DNA of 33,131 bases from a virus. Positions 1 through 33,131 of the stretch are shown one piece after another. The position numbers and the translations under genes are program-made. Below the pieces are notes generated by a model. That model saw nothing but the letters and a program-made list of their open reading frames with translations. It did no database searches and was not told where the DNA came from. Where the stretch lies: IMG/VR virus record IMGVR_UViG_3300017773_000067, one strand, 5' to 3'. The first letter of the stretch is position 1. Each line of letters starts with the position of its first letter.

Positions 1-72
1 AAAAGTTTAAAAACTTCGTATGAAAAATTAAAGATTCTTGAAAAAAAACTTATTAGTAATAAAATATGTTAG
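1..72 (+). CDS. Duplicated 3' end of the 97-aa ORF annotated at 32787..33080 (partial, lies in the terminal repeat)
   Basis: Same sequence as 33009..33080, ending in the same TAG (70-72). This is a linearisation artefact, not an independent gene. Confidence 0.6.
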   Translation, partial: KSLKTSYEKLKILEKKLISNKIC

Positions 73-123
73 AAATCAACTAAACTTACCTGTTGAATAT
101 AAAAAACAAAGTAGAGAAATTTA
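1..123. repeat. Left copy of a perfect 123-bp direct terminal repeat (identical to 33009..33131)
   Basis: Bases 1-123 (aaaagtttaaaaacttcgtatg...gtagagaaattta) match 33009-33131 base for base by direct reading. The repeat boundary falls inside an ORF, which suggests arbitrary linearisation of a circular assembly rather than a biological end. Confidence 0.95.
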
Positions 124-132
124 TAATAATTA

Positions 133-1320
133 ATGCAAATAGAACATTTACACGTTAAAACACTAATACCTTATGTAAATAATGCTAGGGAACACTCAGA
201 GGAACAAGTAGATCAGTTAGCAGGGTCAATTAAAAAGTTTAAATTTAATGTTCCTGTATTAATAGATAAAGAAAGAGGAATTATTGCAGGGCATGGCAGA
301 GTGTTAGCAGCTAAAAAATTAGGTTTAGAAACAGTTCCTTGCATAAGATTAGATCATTTATCAGAAGTAGAAAAAAAAGCATATATTATTGCTGACAATA
401 AAATAGCAACTAATTCAACATATAACAATACGATACTTGGATTAGAAATAGAATCATTAAAAGATTCTGGAATTGATTTAAACATATTAGGGTTTAATGA
501 TAAAGAACTTAATATATTGTCAAATCCAATAAAAGGTTTAACAGATGATGATGAAGTTCCAGAAATACCTGAAGAACCAGTAACAAAAGAAGGTGATATA
601 TATGAACTGGGAGATCATAAAATTTTTTGCGGTGATTGTAGGATCGTAGAAAATGTAAATAAACTAATGCTAGACAAAAAGGCAAACATGGTTTTGACTG
701 ACCCTCCTTACGGAGTAAATTATAATAAAAAAAATGAGCATCTTAATAAAAGATTTGGTGGCAATAGAATAACCAATTACATGGAGGCGGATGATACAAC
801 CGATTTTAAATCATTTAGTTTTGATTTTATTAAAAATTTTAAGTTAACAGAATATAATACAATTTATATATGGATAAACGGAAAAAACGCTTACGAACTT
901 TGTGACAGCATGAGGAAAAATAACATTCGCATAGCTTCGCAATTAATATGGTTAAAAAATAATCACGTTTTAACTAGGCAAGATTATGTAAGTAAATATG
1001 AAATGTGTTTTTATGGATGGAAAGATAAACACAAGTTTTACGGAGGATTTTCAACCGATGTTTTGGAGTTTGATAAACCATTAAAAAATAAATTACACCC
1101 AACAATGAAACCAATAAAAATGATGGAAAAGTTAATTAGAGATGGAAGTGTTGGAAAAAATATTGTTTATGATGGTTTTTTAGGCTCTGGGAGTACGCTA
1201 ATTGCATGCGAGAAACAAGATAGAGTTTGTTACGGTTTTGAATTAAACCCCATTTATTGCGACGTAATTATTAAAAGATGGGAAAATTTTACAGGAAAAA
1301 AAGCGAAGTTAATTAATTAA
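133..1320 (+). CDS. ParB/Srx N-terminal domain fused to an N6/N4 DNA methyltransferase (beta-class motif order)
   Basis: The N-terminus has a ParB-like signature (IPYVNNAREHS...IIAGHGRVLAAKKLG...VPC). The catalytic motif IV is present (VLTDPPYG). The AdoMet-binding motif I lies near the C-terminus (DGFLGSGSTLIACEK). The gene sits directly upstream of the terminase genes. Confidence 0.9.
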   Translation: MQIEHLHVKTLIPYVNNAREHSEEQVDQLAGSIKKFKFNVPVLIDKERGIIAGHGRVLAAKKLGLETVPCIRLDHLSEVEKKAYIIADNKIATNSTYNNTILGLEIESLKDSGIDLNILGFNDKELNILSNPIKGLTDDDEVPEIPEEPVTKEGDIYELGDHKIFCGDCRIVENVNKLMLDKKANMVLTDPPYGVNYNKKNEHLNKRFGGNRITNYMEADDTTDFKSFSFDFIKNFKLTEYNTIYIWINGKNAYELCDSMRKNNIRIASQLIWLKNNHVLTRQDYVSKYEMCFYGWKDKHKFYGGFSTDVLEFDKPLKNKLHPTMKPIKMMEKLIRDGSVGKNIVYDGFLGSGSTLIACEKQDRVCYGFELNPIYCDVIIKRWENFTGKKAKLIN

Positions 1321-22126: not shown

Positions 22127-22585
22127 TCAAAATTTAAAGTAAAGTCTATCTCTGCTACGCACCTTTGGAAAAATTGTTTTTAATTCTCGGCAGTAGACTT
22201 CATATGAGATTCCAAATAAATAACACAAATCGGTAATGAAATAATTAAAAATATGTGGGTCGTTTAAAGAAGCAAATAACCATCTAATTGCTTGTTTTCT
22301 AGTTTTAGCACCAGATGACAAACAAAGAGCAATAGCCTCTTCAAATTCTTCATTAGCTTCATATTCTCTAATCTCGTCCTGACGAATACTTTCTTTAATT
22401 TGAGTTTTAAGATTAGTAGCCATATCTTGAATTTCAACATTAGTCATAGAGTTAAAATCTAACCAACTAGGACGAACCCCATGAACACTCTTATAATTGT
22501 CCCAAATATAATTAATGTTCCATTCACGATCTAATGTTTGGGTTTCAGCAAACTCTTTTAGATTTTGTAAAAATTTTGTGTGCAT
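22127..22585 (-). CDS. Hypothetical early protein (152 aa)
   Basis: Last gene of the leftward block, preceded by a promoter-like element. No motif recognised. Confidence 0.65.
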   Translation of the reverse strand: MHTKFLQNLKEFAETQTLDREWNINYIWDNYKSVHGVRPSWLDFNSMTNVEIQDMATNLKTQIKESIRQDEIREYEANEEFEEAIALCLSSGAKTRKQAIRWLFASLNDPHIFNYFITDLCYLFGISYEVYCRELKTIFPKVRSRDRLYFKF

Positions 22586-22632
22586 TTTTTTTCCTTGTTT
22601 TAAGTTTTTTAAGTTTATTTCCCACTATAACC

Positions 22633-22661
22633 ATTATACTAAACTATTATATAAAAGTAAA
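22633..22661 (-). promoter_or_regulatory. Sigma70-like promoter (TTTACT-17 nt-TATAAT) for 22127..22585
   Basis: On the minus strand the -35 is TTTACT (22656-22661), the spacer is 17 nt, and the -10 is TATAAT (22633-22638). It is part of the shared CTTTACTTTTA motif. Confidence 0.55.
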
Positions 22662-22685
22662 GACAGTTATAATTAAATAACTGCC
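22662..22685 (-). terminator. Weak hairpin downstream of the DUF932-like gene (possible attenuating terminator)
   Basis: The stem cagttat/ataactg (22664-22670 / 22677-22683) has a 6-nt loop and extends to 9 bp with one mismatch. A T-rich tract follows on the minus strand. The AT-rich stem makes it weak. Confidence 0.3.
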
Positions 22686-22711
22686 TTTATTAAATTAAAT
22701 AACAAATAAAC

Positions 22712-23587
22712 TTAAACAGTCGTTGCTTCTTTCCAAGCATTAGAATTTAACACCTTAACTACTTCGCTTCTGGCTCTTTCAATTCTAGCAACAGGATTAG
22801 CGTGTTTTCTTGTTGTATCAACGTGAGTAGCATAGTCTGTCAAAACATTGTATGCTCTATAAACTGTTGGACCATCATGCTCATACTTATTATACAAAGC
22901 ATCAATTTTCTCAAGTTTTCTACCTTTATTGTCATCTACAGATTTAGCACTTAATAAATTGCCTTTAAAAATTTGAAATGCTTCGTCTTTAAACATAGGT
23001 ATTTTTTTGTATTGAGCCATGTTAATCGCATGAGTTTCAGCAAACTCTAAGTGCGTATAAATGTGATCTGCTAAAGTTGTTGAATCAGCATTGATGGTGT
23101 GTCTTTGACTTCTAAAAATTGTTTCTGCTTGATTAGGAGCAACGCAACCATTTAAACACCACATTCTAACAATTTCGGTTTGAATTGATCTAGTCATTGA
23201 AGCATCGTGACTATCTAACAAAGTAATCTTTGTAAATGCTCTTTCATTTAAAATTTTGTTAAAATTGTGGTTCGGCAAAATAATTGAAACTTGCATAACT
23301 GCATTATTATTACCGCCTGTAAAACTCACTTTAGCACCAGTAGTATCTAATTCTGACTCTTGCAAAGAGTTACAAACTTTGTCATAAAACACTTTAAAGT
23401 TTTCGGTATGATGCGATAGACCAACAACCCCAATAGGAGTTTCATCTGGTTTAACTAACATAATTTTATTTTCAAAAGGAACAAACTCTGTTGTTGTTGC
23501 AAAATGTATATCCCTAACCTCTGGTTCATAATCAAACCTAGATTCTATTTGAGGTAAATTACTGTTTTCTTGAAGAACTGCACTCAT
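22712..23587 (-). CDS. DUF932-like (phage/plasmid TIGR03299-like) protein
   Basis: LLDSHDASMTRS, VRMWCLNGCV and RSQRHTIN match my recollection of the conserved DUF932 blocks (nSHDGS, RvvCxN, rHTxn). It is 291 aa. Confidence 0.65.
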   Translation of the reverse strand: MSAVLQENSNLPQIESRFDYEPEVRDIHFATTTEFVPFENKIMLVKPDETPIGVVGLSHHTENFKVFYDKVCNSLQESELDTTGAKVSFTGGNNNAVMQVSIILPNHNFNKILNERAFTKITLLDSHDASMTRSIQTEIVRMWCLNGCVAPNQAETIFRSQRHTINADSTTLADHIYTHLEFAETHAINMAQYKKIPMFKDEAFQIFKGNLLSAKSVDDNKGRKLEKIDALYNKYEHDGPTVYRAYNVLTDYATHVDTTRKHANPVARIERARSEVVKVLNSNAWKEATTV

Positions 23588-23619
23588 ATTATTTTCCTTG
23601 TTTTATTGAATGAACTTAT

Positions 23620-23649
23620 ATTATATAACAAAGAAATTATAAAAGTAAA
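23620..23649 (-). promoter_or_regulatory. Sigma70-like promoter (TTTACT-18 nt-TATAAT) for 22712..23587
   Basis: On the minus strand the -35 is at 23644-23649 and the -10 at 23620-23625. It has the same CTTTACTTTTA core as the promoter at 22652-22662. Confidence 0.5.
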
Positions 23650-23675
23650 GTAAAATAATTAAATAATTAAAATAC

Positions 23676-23704
23676 TTTACAATTGTAATAATAATACTTA
23701 TAAT
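23676..23704 (+). promoter_or_regulatory. Near-consensus sigma70-like promoter on the plus strand with no downstream ORF
   Basis: TTTACA (23676-23681), a 17-nt spacer, and TATAAT (23699-23704). It points into a 120-bp ORF-free stretch that ends at the 23793-23821 hairpin. Confidence 0.5.
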
Positions 23705-23710
23705 AAGTTA

Positions 23711-23826
23711 TAGTCAAAAAGCGTGCTTAAAAAACTTAAACAAGAAAAATACATCTTGGGAATATTTTGGAACCACAAACATAAAAAAAGTCAAGGTAAA
23801 TAAATCAGCATTATTTACCTTTTTTA
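23711..23826 (+). ncRNA. Candidate ~115-nt phage sRNA (predicted from promoter plus terminator only)
   Basis: Bounded by the plus-strand promoter above and an 11-bp hairpin followed by a T-run. The stretch contains no ATG. Confidence 0.3.
23793..23821. terminator. Bidirectional rho-independent terminator
   Basis: A perfect 11-bp stem aaggtaaataa/ttatttacctt has a 7-nt loop (atcagca). It is followed by TTTT on the plus strand and by gacTTTTTTT on the minus strand. It sits immediately downstream of the stop of 23824..24075 (-). Confidence 0.7.
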
Positions 23827-24075
23827 ATTCCGATCTTCCTTTTCAAACAAATGAATCATTGTCGGTGGTGTTATAGCTACATTTCTACCATTCATTTCTT
23901 CCAGAGTTGTAGTTGCAACATTACTTTGAACAAATCCTAATAACACTTTGCTATCTAAAAGAATTGTCAAACCCTTTTCATTTTGCAAAACTGCACCTGC
24001 GTCAACCCATTTCGTTTTGACTTCACCTGTTTTGGTTTTATACTGTACCCCAATTTTAGCTGTTAAACCTGCCAT
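23824..24075 (-). CDS. Hypothetical early protein (83 aa)
   Basis: ORF coupled to the upstream gene by a 1-nt overlap and followed by the terminator. No motif recognised. Confidence 0.65.
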   Translation of the reverse strand: MAGLTAKIGVQYKTKTGEVKTKWVDAGAVLQNEKGLTILLDSKVLLGFVQSNVATTTLEEMNGRNVAITPPTMIHLFEKEDRN

Positions 24076-24317
24076 TATTTATCCTTTCTGTTATATTCAT
24101 TAATCCATGCTTCCTCACGAAGTTTACATCTTGCCGCAACAATACTATCTGATAGTTCAATTTCTAAAATACCTTTATAATAAGATTCAGCTTGAGCATA
24201 ACCAGATTTGTATGCTATGTCCCAAATTTTATGCAAACGATCCTCTAACGTTATATAAAAAAACCAAACAATAAAACAACCACTTATTACAAGCAAAAAT
24301 TTGCATAAAAAAGTCAT
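24075..24317 (-). CDS. Small membrane protein (80 aa)
   Basis: N-terminal TM segment (FLCKFLLVISGCFIVWFFYI). Overlaps both neighbours by 1-4 nt. Confidence 0.6.
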   Translation of the reverse strand: MTFLCKFLLVISGCFIVWFFYITLEDRLHKIWDIAYKSGYAQAESYYKGILEIELSDSIVAARCKLREEAWINEYNRKDK

Positions 24318-24943
24318 TTGTAATTTTTTAAATTAAATTTAAGTTCTTCAATTTTTTCGTTCACTTCTATAATTTTATTCAATAATTTTAACAACTCAGG
24401 TTTTTTAAAAGTAAATCGTTTAACAAATAAAATTAAACTTTCTTTTGGCGATTCGGGGTTGAATGAAACAAAATCACAGTAATCTGCGCTTGTTACTAAA
24501 CATTGCATTTGCATTTGCAGTATATAATTATTATCAACTTTTTTATTACCCACAAAAAATTGTAAATGATTATGTAACAACGGACATTTAATTTCTACCA
24601 AACCACCATTTTTTGTGATCCCATCAGGCGAACAACCAATAAAAGGATATTCTTTGCTAGTGCAAAAATTTACTTCAGTAACATCTATATTTGTTTTTCT
24701 TGAATAATAAACTCTAGCAACATCTTCAAGTTCAGTACCTCTTTTCATAGCAGTTGTTGGTTCAAATTCAGATTTAGTAGGCAAACCACTTATGCGTTCA
24801 GATGCTTTGTCATAAAGCATTTTTTGAAATTTTATAGTAGATTCGCCAGAAAAAATTGTACTAATATCACTTCCAGTAAATTTACCTGCTCGATCCTTTA
24901 ACCACTCCTCCGTACCTTGTTTATGTTCTGAAATATCAAACAT
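24314..24943 (-). CDS. YqaJ-type (lambda Exo-like) recombination exonuclease
   Basis: The YqaJ N-terminal motif is present (QGTEEWLKDRAGKFTGSDIS). PD-(D/E)xK elements are present (SPDGI...LVEIKCP). It is adjacent to the annealase candidate. Confidence 0.8.
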   Translation of the reverse strand: MFDISEHKQGTEEWLKDRAGKFTGSDISTIFSGESTIKFQKMLYDKASERISGLPTKSEFEPTTAMKRGTELEDVARVYYSRKTNIDVTEVNFCTSKEYPFIGCSPDGITKNGGLVEIKCPLLHNHLQFFVGNKKVDNNYILQMQMQCLVTSADYCDFVSFNPESPKESLILFVKRFTFKKPELLKLLNKIIEVNEKIEELKFNLKNYK

Positions 24944-25452
24944 TACTTACTACCTTTAATATTAAGTGGAACTTTTATTGCAGGTTTTTTGGCAAGATGC
25001 TTTAAGTACTCTGGGGGCAAATCATTATCCTTTGTAACTTCTTTTTTTTCAGATATTTTTTTTGCTTTATTAAGTTGATTTTCAATTTCATTTGTATTGA
25101 CTTTTTCCTGTTGAGCAATTGCATTTTCAACTTCATTTGCACTTGCAAATTCAGTTCCACCAAAACCTAAAGAAGCTAATGCTCTACCAATCGCACTTGT
25201 TTCACAGTTTTCTAATGCCGAGGTTTTGTTAATCATTGAGCTTGCCCTTTTTTCTTCAGCATGACCTGTAGCAATTACTCTGCCATTTTCATTCGATATT
25301 GATGCTTTCATTACTACCTTTTGATCGTCTAATTCAACAACTTCTGTTTCCAAAGAATAGTTTTGATATTTTTCGTTTGAACGAAAATTACTAACACGTT
25401 TTGCTACAGTTAAATATTCTTTGCCATGAATTTTTACTATTCCATCAACCAT
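24943..25452 (-). CDS. Putative single-strand annealing protein (Rad52/Sak-like)
   Basis: First gene of the leftward operon, directly upstream of the exonuclease. TSALENCETSAIGRALASLGFGG resembles the Rad52-family helix (AxxxAxTDAxKRAxxxxGxG). Confidence 0.5.
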   Translation of the reverse strand: MVDGIVKIHGKEYLTVAKRVSNFRSNEKYQNYSLETEVVELDDQKVVMKASISNENGRVIATGHAEEKRASSMINKTSALENCETSAIGRALASLGFGGTEFASANEVENAIAQQEKVNTNEIENQLNKAKKISEKKEVTKDNDLPPEYLKHLAKKPAIKVPLNIKGSK

Positions 25453-25566
25453 AATTTTTTCCCTTTACTTTTAGAATGTTTAGTTTATTATAAATTAATA
25501 ATATAAATAAGTATATATTTATTATTAATTAGTTTATAATTAAATAAATTAATCTAAGGAGTTAGT
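25453..25566. promoter_or_regulatory. Divergent early control region (promoters plus candidate operator palindrome)
   Basis: 114-bp gap between divergent operons. The plus strand has CTTTACTTTTA (25463-25473), with TTTACT -35 and TTATAA/TATAAA 18-19 nt downstream, plus a TATAAT at 25535-25540. A 10-bp perfect inverted repeat aattaataat/attattaatt (25493-25502 / 25521-25530) extends imperfectly inward. The SD is AAGGAG (25556-25561). Confidence 0.5.
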
Positions 25567-25905
25567 ATGCCACAGGAGTTAATAATAAATTTAAAGAACG
25601 ATAGGAGTGAAGTAAACAACAGCAGACGTGAGGTCAGCCGAAGAACTTGGCATCAGTTTGGAATGAACAATGTGATGTTAGCAGAAACTTTAGGTGTTAG
25701 TCCAATTACAGTCGGTACTTGGTATAACACGAAAAATGGTGTTAAAAAATTAGTTATTCCAATTAAATATTGCCCACTTCTACAAATGAAAACAGGTATT
25801 AGATGCGAAGAAGCCAATCCAGATGCTTTTTCTGAAAGGTGGACAAATACTGTGAGTGTAGAATCTTTACCTGCAATTGCAGAAGTTTTTGAAAAATTAA
25901 AATAA
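25567..25905 (+). CDS. HTH transcriptional regulator (Cro/YdaS-like)
   Basis: The segment NVMLAETLGVSPITVGTWYN is a typical helix-turn-helix. It is the first gene of the rightward early operon, next to the palindrome. Confidence 0.6.
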   Translation: MPQELIINLKNDRSEVNNSRREVSRRTWHQFGMNNVMLAETLGVSPITVGTWYNTKNGVKKLVIPIKYCPLLQMKTGIRCEEANPDAFSERWTNTVSVESLPAIAEVFEKLK

Positions 25906-26288
25906 TGGCAGGAAGATCAGCAAGAAACAAAGGTTTAAATGGTGAACGTGAACTTGTTAACATTCTTAAAGATCAACTTGGTGATGTTGTTCAAGAAATT
26001 AAACGAAACTTGGAACAGACTAGAACATCAGGTGCTGATATTTTAATTGAGAATTATGTTATTGAAGTTAAGAGACAAGAAAATATAAGTATTATAAAAT
26101 GGTATAAACAAGCTGCTGATAGTTGTAAGGCAGGGCAAATACCACTAGTAGCATTTAGAAGAAATGGAGGAAGATGGTATATAACTTTAGCATTAGAGGA
26201 TTGGATACCTCATATGCGAGAGATGTTATCGCAAAAAAACCAATGCGATTCAGAAGAAAGGTTAGAGGGGCAAGAGGGTGGAGGATAA
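25905..26288 (+). CDS. PD-(D/E)xK nuclease, Hjc-like Holliday junction resolvase
   Basis: The layout NKGLNGERELVNIL...SGADILIENYVIEVKRQ follows the KGxxxERxL...D...EVK pattern of archaeal-type resolvases. Confidence 0.6.
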   Translation: MAGRSARNKGLNGERELVNILKDQLGDVVQEIKRNLEQTRTSGADILIENYVIEVKRQENISIIKWYKQAADSCKAGQIPLVAFRRNGGRWYITLALEDWIPHMREMLSQKNQCDSEERLEGQEGGG

Positions 26289-26466
26289 AGGGCTTCACAG
26301 ACGAAGAATATTGCTATTGCCGTAAATTTTTGGGTTAAAGCCAAATTTACAGATCGTTATACGGGATACCTCACTTTAACAAGTATGTAATAAACTAATG
26401 ACGTAGTCCATTTTAGTGAATTTGCATCTTTGATAGTAATATTGCGTTTAAAAAAAAGGGAAAAAC

Positions 26467-26979
26467 ATGGAAAAGCTATTTAAAGAAATATGGAATATTT
26501 ATCCTAGAAAAGACAAAAAGAAAATTTCTTATTTAAAGTTTAAAAAAATGTTTTTAAAAATAAACTCTTTTTCAAAACAAAATAACATTTCAGTTTATAA
26601 AGTTTTTGAAAATTGGCTTTGGGCAGAGTTAAATAAAAAACAAATTTTAGATGAATTAGGAAAAATTATTCCTGAAAAAAAACAATTTATTCCTCATTTA
26701 GTAACAATGCTTAATCAGGAAAGGTGGGAAGATGAACCTTTTATTAATGCTTATGGCAAAGAGGTTAAAGGTTATTTTGATGCAAAAAATAATTTGTGGT
26801 TAAAAATTAGTTTAAAACCAAAAGTTATAGAATCTAAACTAGACAAAAAACAAATTGAAGCATATAAAAATACAGTTCCAATAACTGTTATCAATTTACA
26901 TAAAAAAAATATTGCAGAGGATAACAACCACGCTGAAAGTTCAAAACTATTTTTAGAAAAAAAAGGAATTAGTTTATGA
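26467..26979 (+). CDS. Hypothetical protein (170 aa), possibly replication-associated
   Basis: The N-terminal FKEIWNIYPRKDKKK resembles the FxxFWxxYPxK motif I recall at the start of proteins in phage replication modules. This is weak. It follows a 178-bp noncoding island. Confidence 0.55.
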   Translation: MEKLFKEIWNIYPRKDKKKISYLKFKKMFLKINSFSKQNNISVYKVFENWLWAELNKKQILDELGKIIPEKKQFIPHLVTMLNQERWEDEPFINAYGKEVKGYFDAKNNLWLKISLKPKVIESKLDKKQIEAYKNTVPITVINLHKKNIAEDNNHAESSKLFLEKKGISL

Positions 26980-27386
26980 ACCAGACATTTATTGTTAATA
27001 AATTATCTAAACCAAAAATTAAAGAAGCTGTAGATTTAGCTAATGATGATATGGTTGTCATTATTAAAAAACGAAATAGGACCACCGAGCAAAACGCTCT
27101 TTACTGGGCATTACTTACAGAAATTGCTGATTCTTCGTTTACTGTTGAAACAGAATTTAAAGGAAAAAAAGTAAAACAAAAGGTAAATAAATTGGATTTG
27201 CACAATACTTTTGCCCATTATTTTTTAGAGCCTGTAGAGATTAAAACATTTGATGGAAAAAATCATTTGGTTAGAAAATCAACAACAGAACTTACAACAA
27301 CAGAATTTGCAGATTACCTAGAACAAATATATAATTTTTGTAGCCAAAACAAAGATTTGCAATTTATTAATGATAAACAAATATAG
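26976..27386 (+). CDS. ninB: NinB/Orf-family recombination mediator
   Basis: VIIKKRNRTTEQNALYWALLTEIAD aligns with lambda NinB VTIQERNRSLDQNRKLWACLGDVS. STTELTTTEFADYLEQIYNF aligns with STSRMRVGEFAELLELIQAF. Confidence 0.8.
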   Translation: MNQTFIVNKLSKPKIKEAVDLANDDMVVIIKKRNRTTEQNALYWALLTEIADSSFTVETEFKGKKVKQKVNKLDLHNTFAHYFLEPVEIKTFDGKNHLVRKSTTELTTTEFADYLEQIYNFCSQNKDLQFINDKQI

Positions 27387-27669
27387 AAATAAAAAATTAT
27401 TAAAGTTAGCTAACAAATGTCCATATTGTATGGCGTGTGGTGCAGATAACAATAATGATATTGTTGCAGCACATTTAAATTTTGACAAATCAAAAGGAAT
27501 GGGAACAAAATGCCATGATTATTTAATTGCTTATTTGTGTTGGAAATGCCATTTGTTAATTGATGAGGGTTATAGTTTAACGCCAGAAGATAAAAAAGAA
27601 TTAAGTCAAAGAGCATTTTTAAAAACCTTAAACTGGTTGTTTACAGAAAATCATTTGACGGTAAAATGA
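27370..27669 (+). CDS. YbcO/DUF1364-family putative nuclease
   Basis: CPYCMACGADNNNDIVAAHLNF..GMGTKCHDYLIAYLCWKCHLLIDEG parallels E. coli DLP12 YbcO (CQVRIPGVCNGNPETSVLAHIR..GTGTKPPDLIATIACSACHDEIDRR), including the Cys/His ligands. Confidence 0.7.
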   Translation: MINKYRNKKLLKLANKCPYCMACGADNNNDIVAAHLNFDKSKGMGTKCHDYLIAYLCWKCHLLIDEGYSLTPEDKKELSQRAFLKTLNWLFTENHLTVK

Positions 27670-28013
27670 ACATTGAATTTAGATTATTTAATTGGGCAAT
27701 TTATTATTCAATGCTTGATGATGGAAGACCAATCGTTAAAAAACATTGTGGAAGTGCAGAGCATAATTTTAAAGGTGAGGTTGGTGAAGTTTTTGATGAT
27801 GAAGATAAGTTTATCGAGCCAGATAAATTTGATGCAGAAAAACTAGAAAAAAAAATTATTAAATTAAAAAAAAAAGATAGGAGGTTAATTAAATTCAAAT
27901 ACATTTTGTTTCCACAACATTCAGATAATTTTGTTGCTAATAAATTAAGAATTTCTGAAGAAAAATTTAAAAATGATTTAAGGTCTATTAAATATCAACT
28001 AGAGAGGAAATGA
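27666..28013 (+). CDS. Hypothetical protein, candidate late-gene regulator (sigma region-4/Q-like C-terminus)
   Basis: The C-terminal KKDRRLIKFKYILFPQHSDNFVANKLRISEEKFKNDLRSIKYQL resembles a sigma70 region-4-type HTH. Its position after ninB/ybcO mirrors Q in lambdoid nin regions. Confidence 0.3.
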   Translation: MNIEFRLFNWAIYYSMLDDGRPIVKKHCGSAEHNFKGEVGEVFDDEDKFIEPDKFDAEKLEKKIIKLKKKDRRLIKFKYILFPQHSDNFVANKLRISEEKFKNDLRSIKYQLERK

Positions 28014-28016
28014 AAA

Positions 28017-28328
28017 TTGGATAAAGTTTTAAAAATTTACGAGAAATTAAATTTAAAAGAAAAAATTGAATTAATGAATTTATTACTTCATAGCGACTGT
28101 TTTGTTTTTTTGCAAAGTGATTTGAGGCAGATCGGCTTTGAAAATAATCCATGCGAACTATCTTTTTTTGCAACGCAAAATGGAACTAAAATTCAAGTAA
28201 CAATTGACATGGATACTTTAAATTGCACAGCAGTTCCAAACCAACACATTAAAAAAATTGATGATATTAAAGCTAACACTTTTTGCATTCCCACAACTGA
28301 CAAAGGAAAAAAATGGAAGATAAATTAA
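28017..28328 (+). CDS. Hypothetical small protein (103 aa), TTG start
   Basis: ORF in the operon. No motif recognised. Confidence 0.5.
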   Translation: MDKVLKIYEKLNLKEKIELMNLLLHSDCFVFLQSDLRQIGFENNPCELSFFATQNGTKIQVTIDMDTLNCTAVPNQHIKKIDDIKANTFCIPTTDKGKKWKIN

Positions 28329-28582
28329 AAATTGATACAGCAACAAATGATTCGTTAAATATTTTTTTTAATGATAAAGAAGAAGATGAAAAATTAAAAA
28401 AAATTAAAGATGCTATTAAAAATGCAGCCGAACAGATGAACCCAGAATTTCCTGTGGTTATTTGTTTTGTGGACAAAGAAAGCAATTATAGGTTTATCTC
28501 AACCGATAACAATAAAGCAAATATCCATGAATTGCTAAATATTACTCAATTTAGTTTATTGGAACAATATAAAAAACGTTAA
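28313..28582 (+). CDS. Hypothetical small protein (89 aa)
   Basis: ORF overlapping the previous one by 16 nt. No motif recognised. Confidence 0.55.
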   Translation: MEDKLKIDTATNDSLNIFFNDKEEDEKLKKIKDAIKNAAEQMNPEFPVVICFVDKESNYRFISTDNNKANIHELLNITQFSLLEQYKKR

Positions 28583-28597
28583 ATAAGTAATTAGCTA

Positions 28598-28626
28598 TTT
28601 ACATTTATATTATTATTCTTTATAAT
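28598..28626 (+). promoter_or_regulatory. Near-consensus sigma70-like promoter (TTTACA-17 nt-TATAAT)
   Basis: TTTACA at 28598-28603, an exactly 17-nt spacer, and TATAAT at 28621-28626. It lies in a 75-bp gap, with AAGGAAAAAAAATG at the next gene. Confidence 0.6.
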
Positions 28627-28657
28627 ATCTATAAGGTCGTAAAAACAAGGAAAAAAA

Positions 28658-28894
28658 ATGGTTGAAAAAGAACTTAAATTCACATTATCTCAATTTGGTC
28701 TGGCTTATCTTTTAGGATTTATTAAAGATAAAGTTGGTGCCGATCAAAGGTTTGAGAATTGGGAGGCAATCATTGAGGATCAAATTAAACACCCTGATTC
28801 CGTGTTTTGTATACCTTCAGATGTTTCAAAGTCTGGGCGCATAGAGACAATTTCTGTGCCTGTTGAATATTTTAATGTAGAGGAGGTAGTGTAA
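28658..28894 (+). CDS. Hypothetical small protein (78 aa)
   Basis: First ORF after the promoter, with a purine-rich leader. No motif recognised. Confidence 0.65.
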   Translation: MVEKELKFTLSQFGLAYLLGFIKDKVGADQRFENWEAIIEDQIKHPDSVFCIPSDVSKSGRIETISVPVEYFNVEEVV

Positions 28895-29259
28895 TGAGTG
28901 CTGAAATTGTTGATGATTTGACGTTGGAATTTCCGAAAGAAAATTTAAAAAAGTATAGTGAAAAGTCAGTAACTGCTGAAGTTGCTATTGCTGAAGAAAT
29001 AACTAATATCTGGACTAGAAAAACAATTTATTTGCCAAGTAGTTTAATTGAGAAATCTGGTGATGATGATTTGTCCGTGCCTATGTGGATAATTAACAAA
29101 TCAGCAATCCAAGCTGTTTATAACTGGGTTAGTAATTATGGCAAAAAGGGAATAGATCATTTATCTGGTAGTTACTATGAAGTTACTTTTGTCGATAGTA
29201 ATGACAAAATAACAGTTGGTGTTACTGTAGGTGATATACAGGCTTATTTAAAAAGGTAA
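28894..29259 (+). CDS. Hypothetical small protein (121 aa)
   Basis: TAATG-coupled to the upstream ORF. No motif recognised. Confidence 0.65.
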   Translation: MSAEIVDDLTLEFPKENLKKYSEKSVTAEVAIAEEITNIWTRKTIYLPSSLIEKSGDDDLSVPMWIINKSAIQAVYNWVSNYGKKGIDHLSGSYYEVTFVDSNDKITVGVTVGDIQAYLKR

Positions 29260-29270
29260 CTGCAGGATTT

Positions 29271-29522
29271 ATGTGGGAGAAACAAATGGTTATTTATACT
29301 GTAAATGCACTTTTAGGAACAGGTATCTTTGAAGCATTTCCATCTAAACGTGAAGCTGAAAAAGCCCAGAGAGAAATGGCAACCCCAGAACATAATTATC
29401 CATTGGATGTACCTCACGCTAATGGAATCCCTTTAACAATCAACAAACATAATATAAAAACAAAAAAGGATATGATCGAGTTGTTGAATTGGTGTAAGGG
29501 AGATGTTGATGGTTTATATTAA
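29271..29522 (+). CDS. Hypothetical small protein (83 aa; the start may be the internal ATG at 29286)
   Basis: ORF in the operon. No motif recognised. Confidence 0.6.
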   Translation: MWEKQMVIYTVNALLGTGIFEAFPSKREAEKAQREMATPEHNYPLDVPHANGIPLTINKHNIKTKKDMIELLNWCKGDVDGLY

Positions 29523-29560
29523 ATTTATGGATAATATTTAAAATAAAAAGGTAATGAATT

Positions 29561-29845
29561 ATGGAAGACTATATCGTTTATAGAAGAGTTACTGAAATTC
29601 AGGGTACTGTAATAAAAGCAAAAAGTATTGAAGATGCAAACAAGAAACTTGCAAAAATTAATGCTGACTTCAACAAAAATCCTTTGGATGCTCCACTAGA
29701 AAACAGCTTGGATTGTGACTTTGAGTTTATTACTTATTTAGATGACCAAACATATTTGCCAAAAAAAACTATACGAGTCGAAGATGCCAAAGAAGAATTA
29801 AGGCCATTTGGTCTTAAGCACAAACGATATAGAAAAAGAAAATAA
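29561..29845 (+). CDS. Hypothetical small protein (94 aa)
   Basis: ORF with AAAGGTAATGAATTATG upstream and a basic C-terminus. Confidence 0.6.
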   Translation: MEDYIVYRRVTEIQGTVIKAKSIEDANKKLAKINADFNKNPLDAPLENSLDCDFEFITYLDDQTYLPKKTIRVEDAKEELRPFGLKHKRYRKRK

Positions 29846-29881
29846 TTAATCTATCAATCATTAACAGGGGTAATAGAAAAA

Positions 29882-30295
29882 ATGACAACTTTAACTGATG
29901 AGGAAATTTTAGCGTTAAAAAAACCAAAAAATAGTTTAACTGAAAATGATCATGCTGTTATTGATGGGTTTTTAAATTATTTTTTACAAAACCTTGAGGT
30001 TTGGTTAGCAGTACAATCAATAACTAAGCAAATGGTTTTTAAAGGTGTTAAGAAAAGTGGCATTGTTGTAGTTTTTGGAAAAATCAGATATGACCACACC
30101 ATAAAAACAAAATCTGATAAATTTAAATTAAGTAATAATTATATGCCTTTTTACGCAAAGGCATTTGCTGAAAAATACCCAAATTTTGCTTTTATTTTTG
30201 ATTATAAAAAAAGTAGAGCAGAATGTGTTGATTATGATTTACTATTTAATTATTTATCTGAAAAAAATAATAATAAAAAGGAAAGTTATGTTTAA
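29882..30295 (+). CDS. Hypothetical protein (137 aa)
   Basis: ORF in the operon. No motif recognised. Confidence 0.65.
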   Translation: MTTLTDEEILALKKPKNSLTENDHAVIDGFLNYFLQNLEVWLAVQSITKQMVFKGVKKSGIVVVFGKIRYDHTIKTKSDKFKLSNNYMPFYAKAFAEKYPNFAFIFDYKKSRAECVDYDLLFNYLSEKNNNKKESYV

Positions 30296-30386
30296 ATTAA
30301 TTGTATGTACAACTTTAACTTTTTTTTGGTTAGACTATGTTTATATAGTTTATGGTTTAAATTTGGATTATTTTACAGGTTTATAA
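30288..30386 (+). CDS. Possible 32-aa membrane mini-protein
   Basis: MFKLIVCTTLTFFWLDYVYIVYGLNLDYFTGL. The ATG at 30288 overlaps the upstream stop (ATGTTTAA). The longer 30165 ORF-track version overlaps the preceding gene and is rejected. Confidence 0.3.
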   Translation: MFKLIVCTTLTFFWLDYVYIVYGLNLDYFTGL

Positions 30387-30412
30387 AAAAATAGTTGTAA
30401 TTAATTTTTTTT

Positions 30413-30523
30413 GGTGGTAAAGTGGAGGTGGGTTACTTTGTCCAGTCGCTAGTAACCTCCCTTTACACACCTCAGGGCAATCTCAGTTTACTTTCCTTGT
30501 TCTTTGATTGCCCACCCTTTTTT
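30413..30523 (+). promoter_or_regulatory. GC-rich structured noncoding element (candidate cis-regulatory leader, attenuator or ncRNA)
   Basis: Hairpin A is ggttact/agtaacc (30431-30437 / 30451-30457), extendable via G-U and two G-C pairs. Hairpin B is gggcaatc/gattgccc (30475-30482 / 30506-30513), followed by accc and T6 (30518-30523). An alternative pairing joins ggtggg (30427-30432) to cccacc (30511-30516). GAGG and then ATG 30537 follow. Confidence 0.4.
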
Positions 30524-30536
30524 GAGGAAAAAAATT

Positions 30537-30665
30537 ATGGCAGGAAGATCAAAAGGTGGTGCAACAGGAGGCAAGAAAAAAGGCAGTTCAGTTGCAAAAC
30601 CATCATCAATGGCTCAAAGAATGGCAAAACTCAGAAGCATGAAAAAGCAAAAAAAACGAGCATAG
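30537..30665 (+). CDS. Small highly basic protein (42 aa)
   Basis: Hand translation gives MAGRSKGGATGGKKKGSSVAKPSSMAQRMAKLRSMKKQKKRA. A GAGG lies 9 nt upstream, and the TAG stop directly abuts the next ATG. Confidence 0.5.
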   Translation: MAGRSKGGATGGKKKGSSVAKPSSMAQRMAKLRSMKKQKKRA

Positions 30666-31358
30666 ATGCCGTTTTTAACCTCTGCAATCCCATACTTTAA
30701 ATGTTGGGTACGCAAAGAATTTACTCATAATCACGAAAAATATACTGGAGAATTCATACATGGATTAGCCACAGCAGTTACTTGTATTCCTGATAGATCA
30801 TTAAGTTTTCAAATAATTTTTACAGGTTACGAGGTTGACGATAATAAAAAACCCAATGTTCATGGTGGTGCAATGTGGGCAAGAATGCCTATTCAAGCAC
30901 TAGTAGGAGATATACCTCTGGAAGAGTGGGCAGAAAGAATGCCTAGCCACTTAGTTCAACCTTGGGATTGTAGTAGCAGAACACATTGTGTATTTGAAAT
31001 ACCAAGAGCAAAACCATCTCCTTGGTTAGCAAAAATTGATGGTAATTTTTTTAAAGCAAAATATTTATTGAGTGTGGATTATTCAGACAGTTCAGTAGCT
31101 GATGATCCTGCACAGCATAAACAATCACATATTCTTGTTTTGACTGATGGGAAATGGAAAGGAAATATAGTGGCTTTGCCAAATAACAGGGTTAGGGTTT
31201 CATCTCCTGCATATTGGAATTTAGGAGAGGGTGCGCCAGATTTTAGACCAAGTCAACATATACATTGTGCCGAAGAGGATTATAGTTACTTAAATGCAGA
31301 ATATACATTCAATAATATCTACGTTGGAAAAACAAATGCTAAAAAGAAAAGAAGTTGA
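30666..31358 (+). CDS. Hypothetical protein (230 aa), compositionally atypical (Trp/His/Pro/Cys-rich, few Lys)
   Basis: Long ORF. I recognised no family. Confidence 0.75.
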   Translation: MPFLTSAIPYFKCWVRKEFTHNHEKYTGEFIHGLATAVTCIPDRSLSFQIIFTGYEVDDNKKPNVHGGAMWARMPIQALVGDIPLEEWAERMPSHLVQPWDCSSRTHCVFEIPRAKPSPWLAKIDGNFFKAKYLLSVDYSDSSVADDPAQHKQSHILVLTDGKWKGNIVALPNNRVRVSSPAYWNLGEGAPDFRPSQHIHCAEEDYSYLNAEYTFNNIYVGKTNAKKKRS

Positions 31359-31362
31359 ATCA

Positions 31363-31473
31363 ATGCAAGAATTTATCAATAGACCTAAACCCAAGCAAGG
31401 CAGGGCAATTGATAAAAAGGTTGAGTATGGTCCTAAATTAAGTATGAAAAATGGCAAAAAAACCAAAAAGTAA
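31363..31473 (+). CDS. Possible basic mini-protein (36 aa)
   Basis: Hand translation gives MQEFINRPKPKQGRAIDKKVEYGPKLSMKNGKKTKK. It fills most of the 184-nt gap. A second overlapping basic mini-ORF (31451..31546, 31 aa) is an alternative. Confidence 0.3.
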   Translation: MQEFINRPKPKQGRAIDKKVEYGPKLSMKNGKKTKK

Positions 31474-31542
31474 AGTTAATCAAGCAGGTAAACAGTTTGT
31501 TAAACAACCAAAAAAAATAGCAAAAAAAGTGAAAAAATTTAT

Positions 31543-32355
31543 TTGAGTGATCCATTTAAAATTATAGAACCAAGCGTTATTAGTTTTTCTGGTGGCAGAA
31601 CATCAGCCTATATGCTTTATCGGATATTGCAGTCAAACAAAAATACTTTGCCAGAAAATAGCGTTTGTGTTTTTGCAAATACAGGCAAAGAGATGGAGCA
31701 AACTTTGGAGTTTGTCAGGGATTGCTCTGAGCATTGGAAAGTTAAAATTTATTGGGTTGAGTATAGTTCAGACAATTTAGGTTATAAAAAAGTAAATTTT
31801 AAAAGTGCTAGTAGAAATGGTGAGCCTTTTGAGGCTTTGATAAAAAAAAGAAAATATATTCCAAATAAAATAATGAGAAATTGCACAATAGAGTTAAAAA
31901 TTAGACCAATACACAAATTAGTTAAAAAAGAACTTTGGCAAGGAAAAGGTTTATCTCACAATGAAAATATGGATTTGATGGGAATAAGAGCAGATGAAAT
32001 GAGAAGAGCAGCAAAAGTAGACAGAGAGAGAGTGCCTTTAGTAAATGCTGGGGTTACAAAACATCATGTTGCGAGTTTTTGGAAAAATAATTCTTTTGAT
32101 TTAAAGTTGCCAAACATTAATGGAGAAACAATTCATGGCAATTGTGATTTATGTTTTTTAAAAGCAAATGGGAAAATACAATCTTTAATTAGAGAAAAAC
32201 CAGAACGTGCAGATTGGTGGATTCAACAGGAAACATTTGTAAAGGATCAGTTCGACAGGTTTGGTATGAGTTACAAGAGAAGAAAAGAGGCAGCCATTAA
32301 TCAAACTGAAATGTTTGAGTTTGACGATTCAATACCTTGTTATTGTGGTGATTAA
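31543..32355 (+). CDS. PAPS-reductase-family PP-loop ATP pyrophosphatase (TTG start)
   Basis: A PP-loop SFSGGRTSAYM lies at residues 14-24. The C-terminus has Cys clusters (HGNCDLCFLK, IPCYCGD). TTG is the only plausible start upstream of the PP-loop, because an in-frame TAA lies at 31501. Confidence 0.8.
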   Translation: MSDPFKIIEPSVISFSGGRTSAYMLYRILQSNKNTLPENSVCVFANTGKEMEQTLEFVRDCSEHWKVKIYWVEYSSDNLGYKKVNFKSASRNGEPFEALIKKRKYIPNKIMRNCTIELKIRPIHKLVKKELWQGKGLSHNENMDLMGIRADEMRRAAKVDRERVPLVNAGVTKHHVASFWKNNSFDLKLPNINGETIHGNCDLCFLKANGKIQSLIREKPERADWWIQQETFVKDQFDRFGMSYKRRKEAAINQTEMFEFDDSIPCYCGD

Positions 32356-32607
32356 ATGGTTGCTAAAAAATATCAAAATCCTAAAGGTGGTTTAAACAAA
32401 AAAGGAAGAGAGTATTTTAAAAGAAAAACTGGTTCAAATCTAAAACCACCTGTAAGTGCAAAACAAGCTAAAAAATCCCCAAAAGCAGCAAGTCGCAGAA
32501 AATCATTTTGTGCTAGAATGGGGGGAATGAAAAAGCTAACTTCAAAAAAAACAGCAAATGATCCAAACAGCAGAATTAACAAGGCATTAAGAAAATGGGA
32601 TTGTTAA
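32356..32607 (+). CDS. Small basic protein (83 aa)
   Basis: The start abuts the upstream stop. Lys/Arg-rich with KSFCARMGGMKK. Family not identified with confidence. Confidence 0.65.
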   Translation: MVAKKYQNPKGGLNKKGREYFKRKTGSNLKPPVSAKQAKKSPKAASRRKSFCARMGGMKKLTSKKTANDPNSRINKALRKWDC

Positions 32608-32790
32608 ATGACAGCAGAACTTTGGCAACGATTTGAAGATATTAAGAATGATTTTGAAAAGTTAAGGTGTGGCAATCAAATGCACCCAACGGATAAAGAA
32701 TTAAATAAAGAATATGTTCTTAATCAAATGCGAGTGTATGCAAAATATTCAGGTCATTTAAATTGGAAAGTATTAAATAGGCTTCCATGA
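32608..32790 (+). CDS. Hypothetical small protein (60 aa), paralogue of the next ORF
   Basis: The N-terminus MTAELWQRFEDIKNDFEKLRCG parallels MTAEEWQKLELIKNNDCKWRLG of 32787..33080. Confidence 0.6.
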   Translation: MTAELWQRFEDIKNDFEKLRCGNQMHPTDKELNKEYVLNQMRVYAKYSGHLNWKVLNRLP

Positions 32791-33080
32791 TGACAGCAGA
32801 AGAGTGGCAAAAACTCGAACTGATAAAAAATAATGACTGTAAGTGGAGGTTAGGTTATAACACTAATAAAGAAGATGCAGGGTTAGAAGAAGCATTTTTA
32901 AAAGAAAGAAGGAAAAATTATAGGAATACTTATCTTTCGTATTTTTATCGGCAGGATCAAGAATTATATGAAAAAATAACACCTTATAAAATAAATACTT
33001 TTTTAAACAAAAGTTTAAAAACTTCGTATGAAAAATTAAAGATTCTTGAAAAAAAACTTATTAGTAATAAAATATGTTAG
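32787..33080 (+). CDS. Hypothetical small protein (97 aa), paralogue of the previous ORF; runs into the terminal repeat
   Basis: ATGA overlap with the previous ORF. The last 72 nt lie inside the 123-bp repeat. Confidence 0.6.
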   Translation: MMTAEEWQKLELIKNNDCKWRLGYNTNKEDAGLEEAFLKERRKNYRNTYLSYFYRQDQELYEKITPYKINTFLNKSLKTSYEKLKILEKKLISNKIC

Positions 33081-33131
33081 AAATCAACTAAACTTACCTG
33101 TTGAATATAAAAAACAAAGTAGAGAAATTTA
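33009..33131. repeat. Right copy of the 123-bp direct terminal repeat
   Basis: Identical to bases 1-123. Confidence 0.95.

Follow-up and report, generated by a model that had tools for sequence, protein, structure and literature searches.

Genes encoding ParB-like proteins and genes encoding proteins that resemble 3'-phosphoadenosine-5'-phosphosulfate (PAPS) reductases can travel together; in Escherichia coli, IbrA and IbrB are an adjacent, dedicated pair of a PAPS-reductase-like and a ParB-like gene, and YbdN and YbdM combine the same two types. Among DNA-modification systems, the Dnd systems include DndB, a ParB-superfamily protein that occurs with the PAPS-reductase-like DndC (PMC10853773). 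The only experimental phenotype of a phage PAPS domain is the anti-Dnd activity of a PAPS/Dam fusion from a Vibrio phage (10.1101/2021.05.05.442762), and PAPS reductases are present in Aca-regulated anti-defence operons (PMC13551039). Some phage DNA-modifying dioxygenases (5mYOX/ParB) need a ParB-like protein for activation (PMC13229309), and ninC of phage lambda is non-essential (PMC10695390). Here we analyse the viral genome IMGVR_UViG_3300017773_000067 (33,131 nucleotides, hereafter the window), in which a PAPS-reductase-like gene and a gene for a ParB-domain DNA methyltransferase approach each other across the ends of the sequence.

An original prediction, made from the letters of the window, had joined these two genes, a 230-residue protein and several very basic mini-proteins into one uncharacterised epigenetic or anti-restriction module acting on phage DNA around packaging. 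The co-occurrence on which it drew is real, DndB with DndC being an example (PMC10853773), and its domain calls and the circular adjacency are borne out below; the single module, and the description of the 230-residue protein as an ORFan, are not. In the explanation that we favour, and that taken as a whole we consider reasonably probable, the region corresponds to the distal part of a rightward operon in a lambda-like marine phage, with accessory genes that were acquired independently, do not make up one system and probably include two independent anti-restriction loci. All components belong to known families (NinC/PHROG 424, ParB-methyltransferase/PHROG 498, DUF6321 and PHROG 3704), and the region is no new system.

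Results

Gene order in related phages

The genes on which the question turns are the following.

31543..32355, + strand: NinC-like PP-loop protein of the PAPS_reduct superfamily, 270 aa, TTG start; assigned with Pfam, PHROG, NCBIfam, PADLOC, AlphaFold2 (AF2) and Foldseek
133..1320, + strand: fusion of a ParB N-terminal domain to a beta-class N6A/N4C DNA methyltransferase, 395 aa, directly upstream of terS
1337-1678, + strand: terS, terminase small subunit (phrog_309, E 1.9e-22)
1665-2918, + strand: terL, assigned by terL homologues

Sequences used for comparison are labelled L0xx. For the comparison of gene order, all window proteins were mapped onto 35 IMG/VR viral contigs with PAPS-like homologues 46-77% identical to the window protein, and none of them proved to be a constant companion. 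Clustering of 586 neighbouring open reading frames (ORFs) gave families that recur in 12 of these loci at most, and the ParB-methyltransferase cluster lay near the PAPS-like gene in four. The neighbourhood of the PAPS-like gene is one of lambdoid replication and nin-type genes, its recurrent members being DUF3310/helix-turn-helix (HTH) proteins, Sak, YqaJ, DUF1376, NinB, a weakly Q-like protein, NinG (E 2.8e-59), DnaB and RusA. Eight relatives reach terL; a ParB-domain gene is present in four of them and absent from four, and L023, L028, L030 and L042 carry the PAPS-like gene with no ParB gene before terL.

The nearest relatives, L051-L053 (Tara and other marine contigs), have about 92% nucleotide identity to the window over 28302-31461 and 32365-32821, and 98% over terL. 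They keep a 42-residue ORF, the 230-residue protein (p230), the DUF6321 protein, a 60-residue ORF (o60) and a ParB-methylase, and they are without the PAPS-like gene: window 31462-32364, which holds a 31-residue ORF and the NinC-like gene, is swapped at L051:2713-3153 for a 74-residue basic ORF and a DUF5824 ORF. The NinC-like gene is a swappable cassette, optional in this phage lineage. The genes for p230 and DUF6321, for their part, occur in very different phages without either partner. One conserved DNA-modification module thus fails on synteny, the test set for it beforehand, with the PAPS-like gene missing from L051-L053 and no constant neighbour in the 35 loci; the reading is contradicted because the genes are not syntenic in related phages.

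Klebsiella phage KPN N98 (L047, NC_052987.1 44279-51917) presents another arrangement, with two PAPS-reductase-annotated genes in a co-directional cluster with hypothetical proteins of 368 and 412 residues and a nucleoside 2-deoxyribosyltransferase gene a few genes downstream. This cluster may serve nucleotide or DNA modification.

The circular junction

33009..33131, no strand: terminal overlap, a copy of window 1-123 by exact match; signature of circular assembly

Window 1-123 and window 33009-33131 are identical strings, and window 1-72 repeats the 3' end of a 97-residue ORF (o97). An independent 6-kb NCBI metagenome contig, L040 (99.97-100% identical), crosses the junction with the order o97, ParB-methyltransferase, terS and terL unbroken, the methyltransferase starting 60 nt after o97. 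Because of the 123-nt terminal identity and of L040 reading across the junction, the circular map is correct and the unique genome measures 33,008 bp, so that the junction-spanning adjacency on which the original prediction was built is real. The ORFs that it listed all exist at the coordinates given here, co-directional on the + strand and tightly packed, with gaps between neighbours of 0 to -23 nt. It had placed the PAPS-like gene about 0.8 kb and three small ORFs upstream of the methyltransferase; the measured distance from stop to start is 785 nt, with exactly three ORFs (DUF6321, o60 and o97) between.

At the nucleotide level, megablast of 30300-33131 against 50,697 phage records gave zero matches. 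Rfam at gathering thresholds returned nothing over the whole window, which also has no tRNA genes. The early region (22127-28582) is lambdoid: leftward it encodes a YqaJ exonuclease and a DUF932 protein, and its rightward genes encode a Cro/YdaS-like HTH protein, a PDDEXK nuclease, NinB (E 8.9e-12) and a YbcO-like nuclease.

A homologue of lambda NinC

The 270-residue protein had been called a PP-loop PAPS-reductase-like enzyme, and this is confirmed by Pfam PAPS_reduct (E 1.6e-6; 28.7 bits against a cut-off of 22.5, over profile positions 3-118 of 175 only), by phrog_424 (E 6.5e-47) and by the PP-loop motif SFSGGRTS. By sequence comparison it is a homologue of lambda NinC and a member of the PHROG 424 family: lambda NinC is 29% identical to it over 211 residues in BLASTP (E 1e-18), and hhalign aligns the two with a probability of 99.7% (E 3.3e-26). 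In an alignment of 46 homologues, the PP-loop residues S16-G-G-R-T-S21 are invariant, as are six cysteines, namely C61, C114, C201xxC204 and the C-terminal pair C266-x-C268, followed by GD; all 46 end in IPCYCGD. The SGGRTS loop, the cysteine of CT..LK, the CxxC and the C-terminal cysteine pair, invariant among these homologues, are also found in lambda NinC. A CysH-type ECG(L/I)H C-terminal motif is present neither in the window protein nor in the 46 homologues, and a Pfam scan detected on it no RNA-binding domain (THUMP, PUA or similar) and no DUF3440-type extension.

The AF2 model has a mean predicted local distance difference test score (pLDDT) of 89.4, with the last ten residues, which bear the CxC, forming a low-confidence, disordered tail. 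The best Foldseek matches in the PDB (probability 1.00, template-modelling (TM) score ~0.4) were LarE, CysH, adenosine-5'-phosphosulfate (APS) reductase and NcsA, a tRNA thiolase, all PP-loop-fold enzymes of sulfur metabolism; the hidden Markov model (HMM) and structural checks proposed for 31543..32355 thus both return a PP-loop enzyme. A sequence search of the protein against the PDB gave chance matches only. In the PADLOC defence library it matched SspD (E 1.2e-15, profile positions 3-197 of 277), BrxP (E 4e-4) and DndC (E 7e-4). NinB and the YbcO-like gene lie about 4 kb upstream in the same orientation, with a promoter- and terminator-like leader in between, and in relatives the NinC-like homologues adjoin DnaB, RusA, NinB or NinG.

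An exchangeable enzyme before terS

The call of a ParB-domain methyltransferase at 133-1320 is likewise well founded. The ParB domain occupies approximately residues 1-150 and contains a GHGR motif. The methyltransferase motifs follow in the translation in beta order, DPPY at ~190 (VLTDPPYGV) and then the FxGxG-type FLGSGS at ~349 (DGFLGSGST). Matches extend over residues 1-392 in phrog_498 (E 6.6e-131) and 1-391 in PADLOC MTase_II (E 1.1e-100), and include N6_N4_Mtase (E 1.3e-20) and PHROG ParB families down to E 2e-48; Pfam ParB_N scores 22.7 bits (E 1e-4), under its cut-off of 26.3. Among phage records, 939 have a match to the protein, which in 307 cases extends over at least 80% of its length. 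The ParB-methyltransferase genes of Acinetobacter phage P711 and Vibrio phage 1.213.O close the early operon and directly precede the terminase, and in neither phage do the 6 kb upstream of them contain a PAPS-like gene.

Orthologous ParB N-domains, 52-56% identical in distant relatives, are encoded directly upstream of terS, and the enzyme attached to them varies. It is a beta-class N6_N4 methylase in the window, at L026:8540-9751 and at L044:6448-7638. At L051:3981-5239, where the ParB part is 88% identical in nucleotides to that of the window, it is a non-homologous methylase with FxGxG before PPY, and tblastn detected no similarity between this methylase part and the window methylase. At L010:9168-10380 a stand-alone ParB_N protein of 175 residues precedes a Mom-family protein (Pfam Mom, E 9.5e-46), after which comes terS. 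A slot for ParB plus a modifier upstream of terS is conserved, with ParB constant and its partner exchangeable. The pattern suggests an exchangeable DNA-modification cassette beside the packaging genes, with ParB as its constant part for loading or activation; this would fit the need of some phage dioxygenases for a ParB-like activator (PMC13229309). Escape from restriction through methylation of phage DNA is the most likely role of the ParB-methylase; variation of the catalytic half between near-identical phages is the pattern expected from diversifying selection by host restriction systems. M.EcoGII, a non-specific beta-class methylase of 349 residues, was considered as a further ParB-fused member of the family and dropped, since its authors saw no additional domains in the enzyme (PMC5778455).

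The leader and the remaining genes

The other features of the region are these.

30387..30536, + strand: non-coding leader with a promoter-like site and two hairpins, from sequence reading and RNA folding
30537..30665, + strand: very basic ORF, 42 aa, isoelectric point (pI) 12.0, 33% K+R; called as a gene on independent contigs
30666..31358, + strand: p230, conserved marine-phage protein, 230 aa, of a family labelled 'PurM' or 'ferredoxin' (phrog_3704, E 5.8e-27)
31336..31473, + strand: 45-aa ORF of uncertain status, overlapping the end of p230; called on L040/L041
31451..31546, + strand: very basic ORF, 31 aa, pI 11.0, with a 4-nt overlap with the start of the NinC-like gene; gene calls restricted to contigs of this one phage
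32356..32607, + strand: DUF6321 basic protein, 83 aa, pI 11.1 (Pfam DUF6321, E 3e-24)
32608..32790, + strand: o60, 60-aa ORF, tandem paralogue of o97; kept in L051
32787..33080, + strand: o97, 97-aa ORF, last gene before the junction; paralogue of o60 by BLASTP

In the leader, a promoter-like site (TTGTAA-N17-TGGTAAAGT, with an extended -10) is followed by two hairpins, of which the first is GGAGGTGGGTTAC...GTAACCTCCC and the second resembles an intrinsic terminator (GGGCAATC-N23-GATTGCCC, then the U-tract ACCCTTTTTT). Its RNA fold has an energy of -48.2 kcal/mol (z = -3.1), and the terminator-like hairpin is identical in L051-L053. Rfam assigned the leader to no family, with only nonsense eukaryotic matches at E<=10, and a generic promoter/terminator scan gave no enrichment over shuffles. 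The layout recalls lambda pR'/tR', the start of the late operon; by this analogy, the genes discussed here would belong to the late transcript. A 137-residue ORF upstream of the leader was considered as a Q-antiterminator-like protein and rejected, having no similarity to the weakly Q-like neighbour found in relatives. In a 37-kb relative, a GC-rich intergenic region of 400 nt with a terminator-like hairpin (L044:3150-3556) lies immediately 5' of the NinC-like gene; it has no Rfam family and could be an uncharacterised structured RNA.

What is p230? The original prediction had presented it as a compositionally odd ORFan, and neither description holds. Homologues fill 1,142 clusters in a set of 5.8 billion proteins and 548 clusters at the 50% identity level, the protein belongs to phrog_3704, and tblastn finds relatives in pelagiphages HTVC027P and HTVC008M and in many cyanomyoviruses; its GC content of 0.36 is slightly above the ~0.32 of the genome. 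Against L051 it shows 30 synonymous and 10 non-synonymous codon differences, by which it is under purifying selection. The proposed HMM and structural searches on 30666..31358 succeeded in part, in that the PHROG family was found, whereas Pfam and the PDB gave no match (the profiles were shallow and diverse, and 29 diverse members have no common Pfam family) and the AF2 model was unusable at a pLDDT of 49.5. The database labels 'PurM' and 'ferredoxin' were rejected, as the family shows no similarity to either. Across the 29 members G68, P75, Y133, G166, P172, N173 and R175 are invariant. The motifs QPWDC, DDPxQHK and PNNR suggest an enzyme or a specific binding protein. The p230 homologue adjoins DNA polymerase A in HTVC027P and stands among unrelated genes in cyanophage S-TIM5.

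The basic mini-proteins, taken by the original prediction as possible nucleic-acid binders, are of unequal standing. The product of 32356..32607 is a genuine member of the Pfam family DUF6321, which comprises 7,779 homologous clusters, with best matches 70-87% identical, and is encoded on many marine phage contigs; by these comparisons it is very abundant, extremely conserved and distributed independently of its partners here. The 42-residue ORF has no Pfam match and is conserved in L051 at 39 of 42 residues, its codon differences being 4 synonymous and 3 non-synonymous. The 31-residue ORF is doubtful as a gene: beyond the gene calls on same-phage copies, it lies inside the segment 31462-32364 that is replaced in L051-L053, and it was not found beside PAPS-like homologues elsewhere. 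The 45-residue ORF matches no family and has in L051 a counterpart of 48 residues, with the first ~35 in common. Neither o60 nor o97 has a family match; the two are 36% identical over 44 residues in BLASTP (E 2e-6), as tandem paralogues.

Discussion

In conjunction with the gene orders in relatives, we propose the following model for the region. The NinC-like protein is a stand-alone PP-loop enzyme of the ATP-pyrophosphatase superfamily with a candidate cysteine-ligated metal or iron-sulfur (Fe-S) site (C114, C201xxC204) and a flexible CxC tail. It may use ATP to adenylate an oxygen on a nucleic-acid substrate, with sulfur then passed on by way of a cysteine persulfide, a three-cysteine Fe-S cluster or both, by analogy to DndC/SspD, TtuA/NcsA and LarE. 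Its gene would provide an optional anti-defence function, and a counter-defence role is supported by the anti-Dnd PAPS/Dam fusion and by the Aca-regulated operons described above. The ParB-methyltransferase, in this model, is a separate and self-sufficient anti-restriction device before terS, in which the presumed task of the ParB domain is to load the enzyme onto phage DNA or to activate it there, and in which the catalytic partner can be exchanged. The p230 and DUF6321 proteins and the small basic ORFs are widespread marine-phage proteins and, in this model, mere neighbours of the two.

Several observations weigh against this model. To our knowledge, no member of the NinC family has a known biochemical function, the Foldseek matches are weak at TM ~0.4, and the sulfur-transfer chemistry is one that we infer from superfamily membership and cysteine patterns only. 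Neither a cysteine desulfurase nor DndD/E or SspB/C partners were found among the scanned proteins (28658-33080, 133-1678 and the early region, with the structural genes unscanned). In addition, the PAPS-like gene and a ParB-modifier occur together in 4 of the 8 relatives that reach terL, and PAPS-like genes adjoin methylases in Phage C72C1 and in L034, because of which a looser, facultative functional link between the two is still conceivable.

Would the same data allow a stronger link? An integrated epigenetic or anti-restriction system, in which the PAPS-like enzyme, p230, the basic mini-proteins and the ParB-methyltransferase act together on phage DNA around packaging, could appeal to the co-directional, tightly packed genes, which form one apparent transcription unit into terS/terL, to the precedents of DndB/DndC (PMC10853773) and of the anti-Dnd PAPS-domain/methylase fusion (10.1101/2021.05.05.442762), and to L026, L044 and L010, which hold both gene types within 2.5-4 kb. 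We nevertheless consider it very unlikely, given nearest relatives that have lost the PAPS-like gene and kept everything else, the lack of a constant neighbour in 35 loci, the 4:4 division over the ParB gene among the relatives reaching terL, the occurrence of p230 and DUF6321 in unrelated phages without the partners, and a ParB-methyltransferase that is widespread alone. A more modest departure from our model concerns the substrate of the 270-residue protein, which may modify RNA, by tRNA thiolation or a lysidine-type reaction, or assist replication or recombination, rather than modify DNA. A weak match to the TilS N-terminal domain (E 0.0021) and the fold of the tRNA thiolase NcsA point in this direction, as do NinB, NinG, RusA and DnaB as frequent neighbours and the annotation of some homologue records as 'NinC-like recombination protein'. 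The TilS and NcsA matches are at the superfamily level only, however, the protein shows no detectable RNA-binding domain of the THUMP, PUA or similar kind, lambda ninC is dispensable (PMC10695390), and anti-Dnd activity is the sole experimental phenotype of a phage PAPS domain (10.1101/2021.05.05.442762); we regard such a role as unlikely, while giving it some weight.

The CysH PP-loop is degenerate, and the catalytic cysteine motif ECG(L/I)H defines the CysH-type family. That the 270-residue protein is nonetheless a PAPS/APS reductase of this type, an auxiliary metabolic gene product boosting host sulfate assimilation, strikes us as highly improbable: its PP-loop is a canonical ATP-binding SGGRTS, its tail reads CYCGD and not ECGLH, the TM-scores reach only ~0.4, and the gene, a homologue of lambda ninC, has replication and recombination genes around it. 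Its spacing of C114...C201xxC204 (87 residues), which we take to resemble that of the Fe-S cysteines of APS reductases, together with the flexible cysteine tail, speaks for a reductase, as does the presence of CysH and APS reductase among the Foldseek matches. The PAPS_reduct match lies above the curated Pfam cut-off and is at the same time limited to positions 3-118 of 175 at 28.7 bits, and virome papers usually annotate such proteins as PAPS reductases (e.g. PMC13369170).

Returning to the model of two independent loci, we may extend it by a bolder conjecture, which we hold to be decidedly unlikely as it stands: the NinC family as a whole could consist of cysteine/Fe-S PP-loop sulfur transferases that mark phage DNA with phosphorothioate or a thio-base, or that otherwise neutralise the phosphorothioate-based defences Dnd and Ssp. 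In this phage the enzyme would perhaps act late, beside a ParB-loaded methylase, leaving the DNA doubly marked before packaging. If true, a lambda gene left without a function ever since the sequencing of its genome would acquire one, and a commonly reported viral 'auxiliary metabolic gene' would be re-classified. The window and L051 form a natural presence/absence pair for the NinC-like gene.

What is the relevance of these assignments? Few viral auxiliary metabolic genes are reported as often as phage 'PAPS reductase/cysH', and ecological conclusions on sulfur cycling and host health rest on the label (e.g. PMC13369170). The locus described here adds evidence against the metabolic label, being a NinC homologue with an ATP-type PP-loop and without a CysH motif, in a context of replication, recombination and anti-restriction genes, on a swappable cassette. 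The slot before terS, with either of two unrelated methylases or Mom, is a natural example of ParB-like proteins partnering with phage DNA modifiers. Both points are useful for annotation and for the choice of experimental targets, and neither amounts to a new kind of system.

Comparison with known systems

The locus resembles IbrA/IbrB in encoding members of both superfamilies at a short distance. Unlike that dedicated pair, the window genes lie 785 nt and three ORFs apart, the ParB domain is fused to a methylase, and the pairing is unconserved, being absent from L051-L053 and from 4 of the 8 relatives reaching terL. The Vibrio phage p0018 fusion (Piel et al., 10.1101/2021.05.05.442762) likewise combines a phage PAPS-like domain with a DNA adenine methyltransferase, in one polypeptide there, whereas here the two are separate genes that are uncoupled in relatives; the NinC-like protein of the window has ~30% identity to PAPS reductases from further Vibrio phages.

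With DndC and SspD the NinC-like protein shares a cysteine-bearing PP-loop ATP-pyrophosphatase domain of the PAPS_reduct superfamily, SspD being its best PADLOC match and DndC a weak one. It differs from them in that the match to SspD is partial, in that no DndA/SspA, DndD/SspC or DndE/SspB occurs among the scanned proteins, and in being about half the size of DndC.

The methyltransferase agrees with the ParB-methyltransferases of PHROG 498 in its full-length match and in its position at the end of the early operon before the terminase. The partner of its ParB domain is a methylase and not a dioxygenase as in 5mYOX/ParB (PMC13229309), and the pairing of ParB with exchangeable modifiers echoes the activator concept of those systems.

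The closest counterpart of the NinC-like protein is lambda NinC itself (nin-region ORF-290; PHROG 424, 'PAPS reductase'). The window gene lies about 4 kb downstream of NinB, past the leader and near the terminase, whereas the lambda gene adjoins NinB, and the C-terminal cysteine pair is CxC-GD in the window protein and CxxxC in lambda. The two proteins have in common SFSGGRTSAY, (F/N)CT..LK, GIRADE..R, GNC..C..K and the C-terminal cysteine pair as such, and both seem to belong to a rightward early operon, in lambdoid genomes that also encode NinB.

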